Position numbers and translations under genes: made by a program
Part shown: piece after piece, positions 17,850-28,673 of the stretch
Numbering within the stretch: the stretch's first letter is position 1
Layout of the letters: every line of letters starts with the position of its first letter
Notes under the pieces: model-generated
Databases searched by the model: none
What the model was told of the DNA's origin: nothing
The model's input: only the letters and a program-made list of their open reading frames with translations
Assembly (NCBI GenBank): GCA_965226055.1
Contig: CBDDCA010000006.1
Location: 640,001-704,000 of the forward strand
DNA length: 64,000 nt
Direction of reading: 5' to 3'
Origin: Spirochaetia bacterium
Lineage (GTDB): Bacteria; Spirochaetota; Spirochaetia; WTKD01; G963693115

Positions 17850-20271
17850 TATTCACTAATTTATTAGGAACAACAATAATTTTTTTAGGATTTTTGTTCT
17901 TTAATATCGCTTGAATAGCATCAATTGATAAAGCAATAGTTTGTAATTGCTCTTTTACTGTGTCTGCTTTTACTTTTGTTTTAGCACGAGTTTTACCGTT
18001 TACCTGTACTACCAACTCTATCTCTGCTTCCTTTGTGAGATTCTCCTGATATTGAGGCCATGGCTCATATGCAAGTGTTTTCTGATACCCTAATTCTTCC
18101 CAAAATTCTTCTGCTAAATGAGGGGCGTACGGAGCAAGCAAAAGAACAAAGGGCTGCCATATTTCCTTATATCGAACACTGTGGATATTCATCTCATTAC
18201 TGAGTATCATCATTTGAGAAATAGCAGTATTAAACAAAAAATTGCTGGTATCCTCACTCACCTTTTTAATTGATTGATGCAATGTCTTGATAAGTTCTGT
18301 AGGAGGAGCATCGGTACTGAGAGGTTTATCAGCAATACCACATAGCTTAAGTAAAAAACGATGTATGCCTTTGAGTCCATTAGTTGACCAAGGTTTTTCT
18401 TGTCGTAAAGGACCCATAAACATTTCATATAATCGCAAACTATCAGCACCATAGGTATCCACAATATCATCAGGGTTGATAACATTGCCTAAAGATTTTG
18501 ACATTTTATTTCCATCTTCTCCTAAAATCATTCCTTGATTTACGAGCTTATGAAAAGGCTCTTTTGTATTAACTGCCCCTATATCATACAGCACTTTATG
18601 CCAAAATCGTGCATACAATAAGTGAAGAACAGCATGTTCTGCTCCTCCTATGTATAAATCCACAGGCAACCAGTACTCTATATTTTTTTTCGAAGCAAAT
18701 TCAGTTACATTACTCGGATCAGTAAACCGTAAATAATACCAACACGATCCTGCCCATTGTGGCATAGTATGAGTCTCACGTTGCACTGTTTTACCATTCT
18801 CTAAGGTTACTGTACACCATTCTTTTATTGCTGCAAGAGGGGACTCTCCTGTACCCATCGGAGAATAACTTTCTACTTGTGGAAGGGTAAGGGGCAACTC
18901 TTCTTCAGCAAGAGGAATAATTTCATCAATATGCGTCTTAAGAACAGGAATAGGTTCTCCCCAATATCGTTGTCGACTAAAAATCCAGTCACGTAACTTA
19001 TACTGAGTTTTCGCAGCCCCTAACGATTCCTGTTCTAACCAAGCTATAACTTTTGCCTTTGCTTCTTGTGTAGAAACACCATTGAAAGGATCACTGTTTA
19101 TAAGAAAGCCATCTCCGATATATGCTTCTTCTAAACTGTCATTTGAAATACCCCGCTGTTTAGAAACTACTTGTATAATAGGAATATTAAACTTTTTTGC
19201 AAAATCCCAGTCTCTCTCATCATGTGCAGGAACAGCCATAATTGCCCCTGTTCCATATCCCATCAATACATAATCCGAAATCCAAATAGGAATCTGTTTT
19301 TTTGTAACTGGATTAAGTGCGTACGCACCAGAAAAAACTCCTGTTTTCTCTTTGTTAAGTTCAGAACGCTCAAAATCTGATTTTTGAGAAGACTGTACTC
19401 TATACTGCTGTACTTCTCTCATATGAGATTGAGGAACAATGCTATCAAGTATAGGATGCTCAGGAGAAACTACCATATATGTAGCTCCCCACAAAGTATC
19501 AGGTCGTGTCGAAAATATCACAAGGGATGAATCAAAGCTAACAATAGAAAATGAAATTTCTGCACCTACACTTTTCCCTATCCAATTTTTCTGCATTATT
19601 TTTATTGATTCAGGCCAATCAAGTAACTCTAAATCATCTAGTAATCTATCAGCGTACTGAGTAATTTTTAGCATCCATTGCATTAAATGACGTCTTTCTA
19701 CAGGATGGTTTCCTCTTTCACTCCTTGGACCGTCATCGGTATTTAACACTTCTTCATTTGCTAGCACCGTACCTAATGCAGGGCAGAACCATACAGGCAT
19801 TTTTTTCTGATATGCCAATCCTTTTTTATACAGCTGCAAAAATATCCACTGTGTCCAACGGTAATATTCTGGAGAATGTGTTGATACTTCTCTACTCCAA
19901 TCATACGAAAATCCTAGCCGTTTTATCTGTTTCCGAAACCGTTCTATGTTTTTTTCAGTTGTTATCTGAGGATGCGTTTTTGTTTTTATTGCATAATTTT
20001 CCGCAGGTAATCCAAAGCTATCAAACCCCATTGGATGCAGTATATGATACCCGTTCATACGTAAAAATCGAGCATAAATATCAGAAGCAGTATATCCTTC
20101 AGGATGTCCTACATGAAGCCCTGCTGCAGAAGGATACGGAAACATATCCAATATATATTTTCTTTTCTCTTTTGGAATAGAAGTATCTTCACATACTTCA
20201 AATGTTTTATTCTTTTCCCAGTAGCGTTGCCACTTTTCTTCTATATACGAAAAATTATAGCTTTTTCTCAT
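17839..20271 (-). CDS. leuS: Leucine--tRNA ligase
   Basis: [31 protein letters not shown]. Confidence 0.97.
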
Positions 20272-20552
20272 ATTTTAATAATACACTGGTATAGTAGTAA
20301 TTACAAGAAGCCTCTGTGATAGAACTATATATAATGGTAACCTAAAAGGAAAAATTCTAAAATTTTACTTATGTTTATTTGACAAAATGTAAAACAATTT
20401 AAAATACTATTAAGGTGATACTCTACAATTTTACTTTCAAAAGATGTACTTATGCCTCCTGACTAATGTCTACCTACAGGTAAAAAAGTGTAGAGTACTA
20501 CAACAAATACATCTATTCTGTAGGTATTTTTTTATTTTTTCTTGCTCTTTTT

Positions 20553-21461
20553 TTACTCCTTTGTCGCATTTATTCCTTGATCCTGTGTCTTTTTTGTTAC
20601 TTGAGCTGGTGATTTAATTTCAAAAATTCTATTAATAGCATAATCTAATTCATATATATATATATTTCCTTTACCTTTTATATTTATTTCTTTTCTTGTA
20701 AAAGAACAATCTATTTTAGATTTATTCTTATGAGTTATACTATGAAAAGCTGTTGTGTTAAAATAAGTTTTATATGCAGGAGCAGAGGAAAGACGACAAG
20801 AATAATTAACACTCTCACCTATAACAAATAACTGTTTGTTAATTACTTTAAAGAATATTTCTCCATAATCAATTCCTACTCCTATCCCAGTATCTGCTAA
20901 TTCTAACTTAAAATATCTTCTATGTTGACTATACATCTCTCTAAACATATTATGTAACTCAATAGAACATTTCATACAATCTAAATGAGCATCTTCATTT
21001 ATCTCTTCTATAAAATGGCATAAAATACCATCTCCTGTAAATTTATCATAAACAGCATTATGTTTTTTTATTACTTTAGATAACTCTGTGATTAAATTGC
21101 TCAAAAAAAGAGGATAAAATTGTATGCTTTCACAAACAGACATTAAATCAGAGCTTTTTCTAATATCTAAACATAATGTGTAACATTTTAAAGTTTTTTC
21201 ATGAACTTTTACATAACCTTCAGGGTTTTTGACATAAAAAAGAGGGTAGATCGCATTTAAGTCTTTTAATTTTTCTAATATTACAGGATTTACAATATCT
21301 TTAAAAAATCCTTCTATTTGTCCTCTTGCTTTTGTTTCTTTTCCTTCATTATCATTTTCTAATGACTTTCTAATTTGTTCTTTTTCAACTTCTATTTGTT
21401 CTTTTGCTTTTGTTTCTTCTTCATTATCATTTTCTAATGACTTTTCATTTTCAGCTGTCAT
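20553..21461 (-). CDS. Stand-alone class III (adenylate/guanylate) nucleotidyl cyclase domain protein; candidate toxin
   Basis: LDIRKSS, DKFTGDG, GIGVGIDYG and GESVNYSCRL catalytic motifs. Confidence 0.85.
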   Translation of the reverse strand: MTAENEKSLENDNEEETKAKEQIEVEKEQIRKSLENDNEGKETKARGQIEGFFKDIVNPVILEKLKDLNAIYPLFYVKNPEGYVKVHEKTLKCYTLCLDIRKSSDLMSVCESIQFYPLFLSNLITELSKVIKKHNAVYDKFTGDGILCHFIEEINEDAHLDCMKCSIELHNMFREMYSQHRRYFKLELADTGIGVGIDYGEIFFKVINKQLFVIGESVNYSCRLSSAPAYKTYFNTTAFHSITHKNKSKIDCSFTRKEINIKGKGNIYIYELDYAINRIFEIKSPAQVTKKTQDQGINATKE

Positions 21462-21469
21462 TGTTGAAA

Positions 21470-21976
21470 TTAATTTTTATTTACAATAGATTTATAATAA
21501 TCAAAAATGGTTTCTTTAGGTATTACTACACCAGGTAATCCAGTATAATATTTATCCCAAGGGGACCCTTCTAAGTGAGTAAGATTTATTAATTGTGTAG
21601 CAGTCCAATCTGAGTATACTTCACAAACTACTTCTATTAAAGATTGTATTTCTTCTTCCACAAATCCTTTATTATCCAGTTGGTATGATTTTTTTGTATT
21701 TCGTGCGTATTGATTAATACTTTTACGAAGTGGATAATATATTTTCGGTACAACAGGACCTAAAGTCCATGCTTGTATTTCTTCTGCAAATAGATATTGA
21801 TTTTTTACAACACTGATAGATCCAAAACAAATATAAATTAGTTTTAATGTTTTTAATAAATCACTATCTTTTTTCTTATCTATAAAATATTTAACAATTG
21901 TATTACTCACAGCAAATGCATTAGTAATTGGTTTTTCAATTACCAATGCATTTTTTGTATTATGTGTGTCACCCAT
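21470..21976 (-). CDS. Panacea (DUF4065/SocA/GepA-like) antitoxin
   Basis: LKTLKLIY..LFAEEIQAWTLGPVVPKIY..LTH.EGSPW; ATG 21976 has SD GAAGGA (the track uses GTG 21982). Confidence 0.9.
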   Translation of the reverse strand: MGDTHNTKNALVIEKPITNAFAVSNTIVKYFIDKKKDSDLLKTLKLIYICFGSISVVKNQYLFAEEIQAWTLGPVVPKIYYPLRKSINQYARNTKKSYQLDNKGFVEEEIQSLIEVVCEVYSDWTATQLINLTHLEGSPWDKYYTGLPGVVIPKETIFDYYKSIVNKN

Positions 21977-22061
21977 AAACACAATCCTTCATAATGATGT
22001 ACCTAAAGAATAAATATATGCAAAAGACATAAATATTCATTGAGGCCACCCTCTATCAGAG

Positions 22062-22090
22062 ATTTTACCATTATTTTGATATTATGTCAA
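22062..22090 (-). promoter_or_regulatory. Near-consensus sigma70 promoter for the Panacea-cyclase operon
   Basis: TTGACA-17 nt-TAAAAT with TGn extension on the minus strand. Confidence 0.75.
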
Positions 22091-22368
22091 TATTTATTGC
22101 ATTATTTAAAATAAATGTAAAGTATTGTATACAATTATTTTAAATTCTCTATCTTTTCTAGCTATTTTAATTTAATTATATCTATATTTAGTATCGATTT
22201 TAATGGGATCTATCTTTAATATTTTTTAGTATCTCGCTATATTTCTTTAATTGTTTCTTTGAATAAATTTTAAAAAATTTTATTTTAAAAACTCAAGAAC
22301 CAAGTGCATCATGAAAGGCTTTCAAAAATAGGACTCACATAAGGGCTATATTGCTATACTACTATTAG

Positions 22369-23514
22369 ATGAGTAAACAAGACAAAAAATCAGCGTCTAC
22401 CCCCCCCCCCCCCCCCCCCATACGTTTCAAGCAGGATGATGGCTCTGATTTTCCTGATTGGCAAGAGAGGAGGCTGGGGGAGCTTTGTTGTATTAAGACT
22501 GGAAAACTTGATGCAAACGCTATGGTAAAAAATGGAAAATATCGTTTCTATACTTGTGCAAAAGATTTTTTCCAAATTGATACATATGAATTTGATACTG
22601 ATGCGTTAATTATTTCAGGAAATGGAGCAAATGTTGGGTATATTCATCACTTCAATGGAAAATTTAATGCTTACCAAAGAACTTATGTTTTAGATGGTTT
22701 TACTGATTCTATTTATTACATCAGACATTTCTTAGATAAATATTTATATAAAATAATCTACAAAGAAAAGAGAGAGGGGGTAACTCCATATATTGTTATG
22801 TCAACCTTAACAAGAATGAAAATAAAACTCCCTTCCTTGCCTGAACAACAAAAGATAGCATCTTTTCTGCAGAGTGTAGACACAAAGATACAGCTCCTTG
22901 AAAGAAAAGTAGTGCTGTTGCAGTCATACAAAAAAGGCGTCATGCAAAAACTCTTTTCACAGGAGCTACGCTTTAAGGACGAGCAAGGAAACGAGTACCC
23001 CGATTGGGAAGAGAAGCGATTGGGAGAGATTTTAGAATATGAACAACCTACAAAATATATTGTTGATTCTTCAAAATATAGCGATAATTATAGTATACCT
23101 GTTTTGACAGCTGGCAAAACTTTTATACTAGGATATACTAACGAAACTTATGGGGTGTTTACAAATCATCCAGTTATTATTTTTGATGATTTTACTACTG
23201 TGAGTAAGTTTGTAGATTTTGATTTTAAGGTTAAGTCATCTGCCATGAAAATATTGAAATTAAGAAAGAATGTACAAGCTAATATAAAGTTAATATATGA
23301 ATGTATGCAAAAAATAAATTTCTCATTAAAAGGGCATAAAAGATATTGGATTTCAGAATATCAACATATAACTATTTCTTTTCCTTCCTTCCTCGAACAA
23401 CAAAAGATAGCCTCTTTTCTGCAGAGCCTAGACACAAAAATATCGCTTACACAGAAACAAGTAGTCCTTACAAAGCTGTATAAGAAAGGCTTACTACAAA
23501 GGATGTTTGTGTAA
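22369..23514 (+). CDS. hsdS: Type I restriction-modification specificity subunit (orphan in this window)
   Basis: Two TRDs flanked by repeated RFK...PDWE.RLGE and PS..EQQKIASFL...KKG.(M/L)Q..F conserved regions. Confidence 0.93.
   Translation: MSKQDKKSASTPPPPPPIRFKQDDGSDFPDWQERRLGELCCIKTGKLDANAMVKNGKYRFYTCAKDFFQIDTYEFDTDALIISGNGANVGYIHHFNGKFNAYQRTYVLDGFTDSIYYIRHFLDKYLYKIIYKEKREGVTPYIVMSTLTRMKIKLPSLPEQQKIASFLQSVDTKIQLLERKVVLLQSYKKGVMQKLFSQELRFKDEQGNEYPDWEEKRLGEILEYEQPTKYIVDSSKYSDNYSIPVLTAGKTFILGYTNETYGVFTNHPVIIFDDFTTVSKFVDFDFKVKSSAMKILKLRKNVQANIKLIYECMQKINFSLKGHKRYWISEYQHITISFPSFLEQQKIASFLQSLDTKISLTQKQVVLTKLYKKGLLQRMFV
22400..22419 (+). repeat. C20 homopolymer in hsdS 5' end
   Basis: acc ccc ccc ccc ccc ccc ccc ata, encoding T-P6-I, in frame. 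Confidence 0.95.
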
Positions 23515-27497: not shown

Positions 27498-28673
27498 TTA
27501 TATTGCTGTAATAGGCACGGCAAGATGCATAGTATCTTTTTCAGAAGGAGATTGAATTCTGATTAAATCTCTATTTCCTTCACCATAATCAATAGAGATA
27601 TACTCTGATTCTATAACACGTAACGGTTCAATAAGAAAATGAGCTCTAACATTTAAATCTTTTTCTTTTCCTGTAAGTTCACCAGAAATTGTTTCTGTCC
27701 CGTATCCTTTTTCTTTTTCTTCTTTACTAATAATAACAGTATTACTCTGTATAGACAATTTTATCACTGTATCTTTTTTATCATCTGCTATGGAAGATAC
27801 TCGTTCTAAGGCTTGAGTAAACTCTTTTGTGTTCACTTTTACAGAACTGCGTTCTCCTGTAGGGTTTGTTTTTTCTGGAAGTATATTTTCATAGTTGTAA
27901 TATTTCCCAGAAATAATATTAACACTTACAAGAAATCCTTCAAGTAAAAAATATACTCTATTATCTTTTTGCCCTATTTCTACCTCCGTATTTTCTCTTA
28001 TAAGAAGAGATTTTATAAAATTGATTGAACGAGAAGGAATAATAAGATCTACATCATTTGATTTTGCAATTTGCAAATCTATTGGATGTTCTAATTTCAT
28101 TTTGGCTATTGATATTCTGTTTCTATCTGTTGCAACAGCAATAAGATGAGAATCCTTAAAATCAAAAAATATCCCTGTAAGAAATAATGTTGTTGCATTT
28201 GTGTCTGATGATGCAGCAAATACAGTACTTGTTATTATTCGTATTAGTTCTTGTTTATCAACTTTATATTTCTCTTCAGGCATTGGAAGATGAATAGCAG
28301 GATAATCCTCAGCATCTCTTGTTCGAACAGAGAATTCTATTTTATTTGTATCTTTTTCTGGAGTTATAACAACACTTTGTTCCACAAGAGAAAGAGTAAC
28401 AATGCCAGGGGGAAGCGAAGAAAAAACATTGTGTATTTTAGTACCAGGCAATAACATGCTTCCTTCCGATACTATATCCAACTGATTTTCCTTATTAGGA
28501 ACAATAGTAATTTCTAGTGTTGTAAACCTATCAGCAGATTTAATACAAAGTGCGTTTTTTGTCACTTCAAATATAAAATAGGAATAATATACATTGATGT
28601 GTCCATTTTCTGATATTTCCCTTGCATACTGAAAACGATTATAGAGAAAGTCTCTGTCTATCTTAAATACCAT
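27498..28673 (-). CDS. dnaN: DNA polymerase III beta clamp (divergent)
   Basis: VATDRNRI, GKYYNYE..LP, ALERVS; SD AAGGAG; upstream of recF. Confidence 0.9.
   Translation of the reverse strand: MVFKIDRDFLYNRFQYAREISENGHINVYYSYFIFEVTKNALCIKSADRFTTLEITIVPNKENQLDIVSEGSMLLPGTKIHNVFSSLPPGIVTLSLVEQSVVITPEKDTNKIEFSVRTRDAEDYPAIHLPMPEEKYKVDKQELIRIITSTVFAASSDTNATTLFLTGIFFDFKDSHLIAVATDRNRISIAKMKLEHPIDLQIAKSNDVDLIIPSRSINFIKSLLIRENTEVEIGQKDNRVYFLLEGFLVSVNIISGKYYNYENILPEKTNPTGERSSVKVNTKEFTQALERVSSIADDKKDTVIKLSIQSNTVIISKEEKEKGYGTETISGELTGKEKDLNVRAHFLIEPLRVIESEYISIDYGEGNRDLIRIQSPSEKDTMHLAVPITAI

Follow-up and report, generated by a model that had tools for sequence, protein, structure and literature searches.

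The window analysed here is a stretch of 64,000 nt (contig CBDDCA010000006.1, positions 640,001–704,000 of the forward strand), and all positions below are window positions. It carries a two-gene cassette on the minus strand. The first gene, panA, encodes a stand-alone Panacea (DUF4065) protein, and the second gene encodes a cyclase-type protein, which is the candidate toxin of the pair (candidate name panT). The two open reading frames (ORFs) are 8 bp apart (21462–21469). PanA matches the Pfam family PF13274 (SocA_Panacea) at residues 46–142 (E 1.4e-12, 49.0 bits, cut-off 25.7), and the cyclase matches PF00211 (Guanylate_cyc) at residues 96–272 (E 1.1e-7, 32.1 bits, cut-off 21.9). An earlier sequence-only reading of this DNA had described a two-gene operon, antitoxin first, coding for a Panacea protein and a class III nucleotidyl cyclase. 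Both the layout and the two identities hold. The features are collected in Table 1.

Table 1. Positions of the cassette, its genes and their elements in the window (a dot where no strand applies)
Feature	Position	Strand	Details
panA, stand-alone Panacea (DUF4065) protein	21470..21982	-	170 aa from GTG; 168 aa from ATG 21976
Candidate toxin gene panT, cyclase-type	20553..21461	-	302 aa; PF00211, PADLOC PycC models, AlphaFold2 model, Foldseek
Cyclase catalytic domain	20643..21194	-	Residues 90–273, with D99, K140, D144, F212, N219, R223 and K262; alignments, model, Foldseek
Shine-Dalgarno-like AAGGA	21985..21989	-	8 nt 5' of ATG 21976
Sigma-70-like promoter match	22062..22090	-	TTGACA 22090–22085, 17 nt, TAAAAT 22067–22062; 11/12 consensus matches; TG before the -10 hexamer
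Indel cassette	20320..22288	.	1,969 bp; present in the window; 12 unrelated bases instead in G004
In-frame tandem duplication in the N-terminal helix of the cyclase	21311..21451	-	Period 75–78 nt (about 26 codons), 83–87% identical; repeat search, model, alignment
Copy of a dispersed genomic repeat of about 54 nt	20527..20580	.	Overlaps the stop codon of the cyclase gene and the 9 codons before it; genome matches

The real start of panA is more likely the ATG at 21976 than the GTG at 21982, because the AAGGA motif lies upstream of this ATG and a database copy of the protein (P0098) has 168 residues. On reading the sequence, no obvious ribosome-binding site for the cyclase gene was seen in the 8-bp spacer. 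The near-consensus promoter that the sequence-only reading had proposed upstream of panA was recovered as the best-scoring site within 20200–22450. In this region, 20 promoter-like sites were found against 15.2 expected in shuffled sequences of the AT-rich background. The site fits the consensus but does not prove a promoter, since AT-rich DNA yields many such sites by chance. A second promoter-like site is located at 20379–20408 on the plus strand (TTGACA, 18 nt, AATACT, 10/12), facing antisense into the cyclase gene at its 3' end; it may be a chance match in AT-rich DNA. No terminator was predicted in 20200–22450.

Fold and catalytic residues of the cyclase

The AlphaFold2 model of the cyclase, which was built on 19 homologues, has a mean predicted local distance difference test (pLDDT) score of 82. 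It consists of a long N-terminal helix (residues 4–53) followed by a compact alpha/beta domain (residues 90–273). According to the prediction, the N-terminal 90 residues or so are helical, and the protein contains neither a sensor domain nor a transmembrane domain, as had been claimed from the sequence. Searched with Foldseek against PDB structures, the model had 188 matches at E <= 0.001, and the 50 that were listed all belong to class III cyclases. For single-domain chains near the top of the list, the target-normalised TM-score is 0.75–0.84 at E of about 1e-12 (0.79 for CyaB, 3r5g; 0.83 for Rv1900c, 1ybt; 0.75 for Cya2, 2w01). The Pycsar cUMP synthase 7r65 stands at rank 36 with a TM-score of 0.60. 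The cyclase also matches five PADLOC models of the Pycsar cyclase PycC, with E values from 3.5e-13 (best) to 8e-4.

The translation contains the motifs DIRKSS (D99), DKFTGDG (K140 and D144), LFVIG (F212) and VNYSCR (N219 and R223). The catalytic columns were assigned by direct alignment to Pseudomonas aeruginosa CyaB (3r5g) and Synechocystis Cya2 (2w01). D99 and D144 occupy the two metal-binding Asp columns, and N219 and R223 occupy the columns of the Asn/Arg pair. K140 is located at the first base-specifying column, which is Lys in CyaB and Glu in the guanylyl cyclase Cya2, and F212 is located at the second, which is Thr in CyaB and Gly in Cya2. K262 lies within a KGK motif as the phosphate-binding Lys and is nearly invariant in the 19-member family. 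The residues that the sequence-only reading had picked out by motif, including LFVIG at the second base-specifying position, thus fall on the expected columns, and the catalytic residue set is complete.

All 19 family members carry D99, K140, D144 and R223. None of the metal, base and phosphate residues varies among the seven close members, although these share only 42–48% identity with the window protein in the alignment used. F212 is conserved in all seven; short homologues at the next distance have Tyr or Cys in this column, and the distant, longer ones have Thr or Ser. From these alignments, the cyclase looks catalytically competent.

The canonical base-specifying pairs are Lys with Asp or Thr for ATP, and Glu with Cys or Gly for GTP. 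The cyclase has K140 at the first column but F212 at the second, and does not fit a canonical pair. The sequence does not reveal its substrate. The proposal that the product may not be cAMP, resting on F212, is reasonable.

Two features, one at each end of the protein, are private to this copy. The tandem duplication in the N-terminal helix is absent from the close relatives of 242–287 residues, and it lengthens the window copy. At the other end, the dispersed repeat that covers the 3' end of the gene matches at least 39 other places in this genome and has many copies in G004, the other genome of the genus. No stable RNA fold was predicted for this repeat (z 0.25). It could be an element like a repetitive extragenic palindrome (REP) or a miniature inverted-repeat transposable element (MITE).

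The Panacea protein

PanA is homologous to the validated PanA of the Burkholderia prophage phi52237 (29% identical, E 6e-17). No helix-turn-helix domain was detected in PanA, and PADLOC gave no match for it. The NCBIfam model SocA_antitoxin matches PanA far below threshold (E 3.6e-13, 49.6 bits, equivalog cut-off 190). A word-indexed protein search with PanA returned only PanA itself (1 match among 27 candidates). In the complex prediction of PanA with the cyclase, which was run without controls, the scores were 0.28, 0.79 and 0.00 against a mark of 0.32, and they speak neither for binding nor against it.

The window's own genome (G000, 2.25 Mb, six contigs) contains five Panacea loci, and two of them are paired with cyclases. 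Two further Panacea genes (L003:1414-2203, contig C6 at 29.8 kb; L004:1414-2218, contig C4 at 166.6 kb) each overlap a downstream gene for a small hydrophobic protein (109 and 122 residues), and neither protein has a Pfam match. These partners resemble the membrane-toxin class among the published PanAT pairs, as far as Table 1 of PMC8832971 lists them. The fifth locus has no obvious partner of at least 60 residues.

Presence of the cassette and the second pair

G004 is the only other genome of the same genus that was compared. The window positions 20001–20319 and 22289–22387 align to adjacent positions of G004 with 97% and 85% identity, and the flanks of the cassette are 96–97% identical. These results show that the cassette is a discrete accessory unit. 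Neither a target-site duplication nor convincing terminal inverted repeats were found at its borders. The AT-rich islet noted from the sequence is real but modest. The GC content is 0.244–0.284 over 20500–21999 compared with 0.31–0.39 in leuS, and other bins of the window are equally low (0.222 at 28500).

A second pair is present in the same genome next to clpP (contig C4, L005:643-1971). It encodes a PanA of 185 residues and a cyclase of 254 residues, 6 bp apart. This cyclase is 48% identical to the window cyclase over 81% of the query (51% in another comparison), and the two PanA proteins are 52–53% identical. From these similar values, PanA and the cyclase of the two pairs have diverged together, to a similar degree. 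The orthologue of the second pair in G004 lies between era and clpP (L096:1495-2824). Thus, the Panacea–cyclase pair is found at three loci in two genomes of one genus, and the reading frames are intact at all three. The recurrence of the pair, for which the sequence-only reading had asked a neighbourhood survey, is confirmed within the genus and does not extend to the distant relatives described below.

Breadth of the cyclase family

A word-indexed search of 5.8 billion clustered proteins found 19 proteins, namely the query, five close relatives (48–54% identical, 242–287 residues) and 13 distant relatives (31–35% identical, 286–421 residues) whose N-terminal extension resembles a coiled coil. 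When 1.84 billion representatives were searched exhaustively with a profile, 3,132 proteins matched at E <= 0.001, and 304 of them reached E <= 1e-30. Just two representatives score above 390 bits, and the next ones, at 200 bits or less, include a few short intermediates (239–284 residues).

The gene context was taken from 94 loci of distant relatives: the best 80 of 170 from species-representative genomes, four from IMG/VR viral contigs, three from JGI metagenomes (all 34–36% identical) and seven from a sample of genomes of the phylum. At 82 of these loci, the sequence extends at least 600 nt upstream of the cyclase. These counts do not include P0003-P0006, four close homologues encoded in other assemblies. 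In tblastn searches with the cyclase, no match was found in phage records, and 11 weak matches were found in plasmids, none of them covering at least 80% of the query. In the best plasmid match (Persicobacter sp. JZB09 plasmid CP012861.1, L124:2977-4616), a distant homologue is split into pieces of 161 and 104 residues and has no Panacea neighbour. The inserted gene of 297 residues that splits it was judged transposase-like from its translation alone. At the Sulfuritalea/Rhodocyclales loci (L033-L047), distant relatives of about 250 residues are repeatedly followed by a conserved same-strand ORF of 269 residues. These may be a separate conserved pair of a cyclase and a partner. AHSA1/Polyketide_cyc2 (SRPBCC) domains were found in five of the 76 upstream neighbours of distant relatives.

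Comparison with known systems

The Panacea domain was named by Kurata et al. (PNAS 2022, PMC8832971), who described nine validated pairs. According to the parts of that paper available to us, one validated pair comes from phi52237. Its toxin has no CDD match, and HHpred relates it to adenylate/guanylate cyclases with 97% probability. This putative cyclase is toxic in Escherichia coli, and is neutralised by and co-purifies with its own PanA. The toxin inhibits transcription more than translation and induces RelA-dependent guanosine tetraphosphate (ppGpp). ATP is unchanged, GTP goes down only slightly, and the product was not identified (PMC8832971).

In the phi52237 record, a PanA of 157 residues is followed by a toxin of 314 residues with a 2-bp spacing. 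Thus, the gene order, the sizes and the tiny spacer match those of the window pair, and the predicted structures of both toxins match class III cyclases in the PDB. The toxins themselves, however, share no detectable sequence similarity (BLASTP E 0.52 against YP_293707.1; hhalign probability 0.2% between a 19-sequence and a 38-sequence toxin profile). The phi52237 toxin gave no Pfam or PADLOC match. Its model has a pLDDT of 90, and the matches to class III cyclases are loose (E about 1e-4, TM-score <= 0.59). Furthermore, the pair is borne on a prophage there, whereas the window pair is located on the chromosome.

A Panacea protein with a cyclase-like toxin is therefore already established in kind, and the toxin family found here is different and a far more canonical cyclase. 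The sequence-only reading had taken the pairing as uncharacterised; this no longer stands in the broad sense, given the validated phi52237 pair, and it stands in the narrow sense that the PF00211-type toxin has no detectable sequence similarity to that toxin. In the literature searched, no report of a Panacea–cyclase pair was found beyond Kurata 2022 and its preprint; PF00211-type partners might be listed among the predicted toxin clusters in the supplements of that paper and of NetFlax. No such pair is mentioned in the accessible portions of the NetFlax paper (PMC10440598), a 2026 NAR defence-discovery paper (PMC13069673) or a 2026 preprint (10.64898/2026.08.12.744502).

Pycsar consists of a cyclase plus a receptor, in the account available from PMC11224242. 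The window cyclase resembles the Pycsar cyclase in being a small stand-alone class III enzyme without a sensor domain, as well as in the PycC and 7r65 matches. In Pycsar, however, a cyclic nucleotide monophosphate (cNMP)-activated effector is adjacent, whereas here the partner is a Panacea protein. The window cassette is not Pycsar, because no cNMP-binding effector is adjacent to it.

The class III cyclases CyaB (3r5g) and Cya2 (2w01) share with the window cyclase the fold, the two metal Asp residues and the Asn/Arg pair, and K140 is the Lys of the adenylyl cyclase type. Unlike them, the window cyclase has Phe at the second base-specifying column, no regulatory domain and an operon partner of an antitoxin family. 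The PanA-neutralised toxSAS toxins (RelA/SpoT-like) are also nucleotide-synthesising toxins checked by Panacea proteins, according to the available parts of PMC8832971 and PMC10118264; their fold is unrelated, and they catalyse pyrophosphate transfer rather than cyclisation. SocA of the type VI system SocAB is the founding Panacea-domain protein, to which the weak NCBIfam match of PanA refers, but no SocB-like partner exists at the window locus.

Proposed function and its weighing

We interpret the cassette as a PanAT-type (type II-like) toxin–antitoxin (TA) module, in which the Panacea protein would be the antitoxin and the canonical class III cyclase the toxin. We put the probability of this at about 60%. 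It is the best supported reading because the pair recurs at three loci with both members co-diverged, because the cassette is a discrete indel, and because the genome contains other Panacea loci. The phi52237 pair supports it as well, since it is homologous in PanA, has the same layout and is published as toxic and neutralised. So does the accessory, mobile-like nature of the cassette, which is an indel relative to G004 and has a lower GC content. The sequence-only reading had left the choice between a cyclase that is itself the toxin, by depletion of nucleoside triphosphates (NTP) or by flooding with cNMP, and a Panacea-gated source of a second messenger. The toxin is now the better supported choice of the two, and depletion is the weaker of the two routes.

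In such a module, PanA would be made first from a strong promoter, and the cyclase would be translated by coupling or weakly, so that the antitoxin is in excess. The excess is proposed because the spacer has no obvious ribosome-binding site. Class III cyclases need a head-to-tail homodimer to build their two active sites. PanA would bind the cyclase and keep it inactive, probably by hindering the homodimer or by covering the active site. Once PanA is not replenished or is degraded, the cyclase would be released; possible triggers are loss of the cassette, shut-off of host expression in phage infection, and proteolysis. The freed cyclase would dimerise, probably aided by the N-terminal helix, and would convert NTP to a 3',5'-cyclic NMP and pyrophosphate. 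The cyclic nucleotide itself would be what arrests growth, by overload or mis-signalling through the cNMP receptors of the host, or by an unusual cNMP. By analogy, bulk depletion of ATP is a less likely cause of harm, since ATP was unchanged in the phi52237 case.

A variant of this scheme places more weight on the product. The cyclase may make a cyclic nucleotide other than cAMP or cGMP that serves as a poison or an alarm. In that case, the cassette would be a relative of Pycsar that lacks an effector and is gated by Panacea, and the loss of PanA during phage attack would flood the cell with a non-canonical cNMP. The invariant Lys–Phe pair at the base-specifying positions allows such a product. 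We regard this variant as unlikely.

Several observations weigh against the TA reading. The host itself runs cNMP signalling, with four other PF00211 proteins and five cNMP-binding domains, so that a cyclic nucleotide is not obviously poisonous to it. The phi52237 precedent applies by analogy only, because the window toxin has no detectable sequence relationship to the phi52237 toxin. In most members of the wider family, the transition-state residue N219 is replaced by Val. Close relatives of the cyclase were found only in G000 and G004 among nine genomes of the order, 401 sampled genomes of the class and 401 sampled genomes of the phylum. A custom Panacea hidden Markov model, built from six PanA sequences, matches none of the 94 distant-relative loci (next-best E 0.91). 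Similarly, in Pfam searches, PF13274 was found in none of the 76 immediate same-strand upstream ORFs of these relatives, with the window PanA matched as a control; the other 18 loci have no upstream ORF of at least 60 residues within 400 nt. From the absence of Panacea at these loci, the pairing is a property of a small compact subfamily and not of the cyclase family at large.

The last point concerns selection, for which the paralogous pair was compared between G000 and G004. Its cyclase shows 13 nonsynonymous and 2 synonymous differences (omega about 1.4), which is not distinguishable from neutral drift (p = 1.0). For its PanA, the counts are 6 nonsynonymous and 11 synonymous (omega 0.12; p 5.6e-5 in a binomial test against neutrality), and the contrast between the two genes is significant by Fisher's test (p 0.005), all on small counts. 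Between the two species, these results indicate purifying selection on PanA of this pair; they give no sign of constraint on the toxin over this short distance. Over a longer term, the alignments do show constraint on the cyclase, because the catalytic residues are invariant among the seven close members in spite of their low identity.

It is from this contrast that an inert or decaying relic might be considered, in which the activity or toxicity of the cyclase has been lost and only PanA is maintained. The tandem duplication in the N-terminal helix, the C-terminal tail that runs into the dispersed repeat, and the variable N219 would agree with decay. The intact reading frames at the three loci and the invariant metal, base and phosphate residues oppose it. 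Seven of the 11 amino-acid changes in the paralogous cyclase fall within residues 1–60, outside the catalytic domain, and the four inside it are conservative (I/M, K/R, K/Q and D/E). We thus consider a relic improbable. A similarly low probability is given to a non-toxic regulatory pair, in which the cyclase would be an ordinary source of a second messenger and the Panacea protein a regulatory or stabilising partner without addiction or killing. The cNMP signalling of the host would suit such a role, as would the 304 or so representative relatives at E <= 1e-30, which show no sign of Panacea linkage where the context is visible. Panacea proteins are, however, described as antitoxins of diverse toxins in the available parts of PMC8832971 and PMC10440598. 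Moreover, the cassette is dispensable, as its absence from G004 shows, is duplicated as a unit and encodes a cyclase without a sensor domain. A selfish module accounts for these features better than a regulator wired into the cell would.

Abortive-infection signalling is somewhat more plausible than either of these, while still unlikely. PanA would be a phage-sensing lid on a Pycsar-like cyclase, and the cNMP would activate effectors encoded elsewhere, for which the five cNMP-binding domains of the genome could serve as receivers. The five PycC matches, the position of the cassette beside an hsdS gene and the two of four viral-contig relatives that belong to the stronger similarity group agree with this. 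So does the use of purine as well as pyrimidine signals by Pycsar-related cyclases, as given in the accessible part of the 2026 preprint (10.64898/2026.08.12.744502). On the other hand, no cNMP-binding, TIR or transmembrane effector is adjacent, the genes for the cNMP-binding proteins are on different contigs or at a distance of over 300 kb, and the surroundings are of the housekeeping kind. With the family profile, CyaB (3r5g) is matched at E 2.3e-11 and the solved Pycsar cyclase (7r65) at a much weaker E of 0.0023, and no link between Panacea and a Pycsar cyclase appears in the available parts of the literature searched. This explanation overlaps with the TA reading, since many TA modules also defend against phage.

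The pairing of a Panacea protein with a presumptive toxin that is a textbook class III cyclase is so far seen in one genus. The value of the pair lies in a tractable model, both for a mononucleotide cyclase acting as a toxin and for the product of the Lys–Phe specificity pair. The available text of PMC8832971 does not settle by which route its Panacea-linked cyclase toxin, the one validated example, harms cells. The window cyclase is far easier to work with, being a textbook class III enzyme with all catalytic residues in place, and mutants, mass spectrometry of the product and comparison with Pycsar would be straightforward. If the cyclase is toxic, one antitoxin domain would have taken on second-messenger cyclases as toxins on at least two occasions, and the link between TA modules and immune signalling by cyclic nucleotides would become closer. 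Should it prove non-toxic, Panacea proteins would have a role beyond the neutralisation of toxins. If it makes a non-canonical cNMP, this would be the first TA system with a canonical class III cyclase toxin and a defined small-molecule product.

Surroundings of the cassette

The neighbours of the cassette are leuS, an hsdS gene with two target-recognition domains, radC and a serA-like gene. Genes around the cassette are housekeeping genes and do not form a defence island. As the sequence-only reading had noted, no cNMP-binding effector lies next to the cassette; the neighbours include no transmembrane or TIR effector either. It had also called the hsdS gene (22369–23514) an orphan, which agrees with the nearest hsdM match being about 300 kb away. 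The genome contains seven full-length two-domain hsdS genes (the window copy and those on contigs C1, C3, C4, C5 and C6). Only one of them is adjoined by hsdM (C6:359-362 kb), and the window copy is among the six orphans.

Among the contigs of four public runs, one of 2,308 nt from run X1 covers 20066–22373 without differences, and X1 may be the source sample. Conserved segments of hsdS recur at many sites in G004. In contigs of public runs, alternative joints skip 351–547 nt within 22468–23029, which suggests variant or shuffled hsdS specificity genes at this position.

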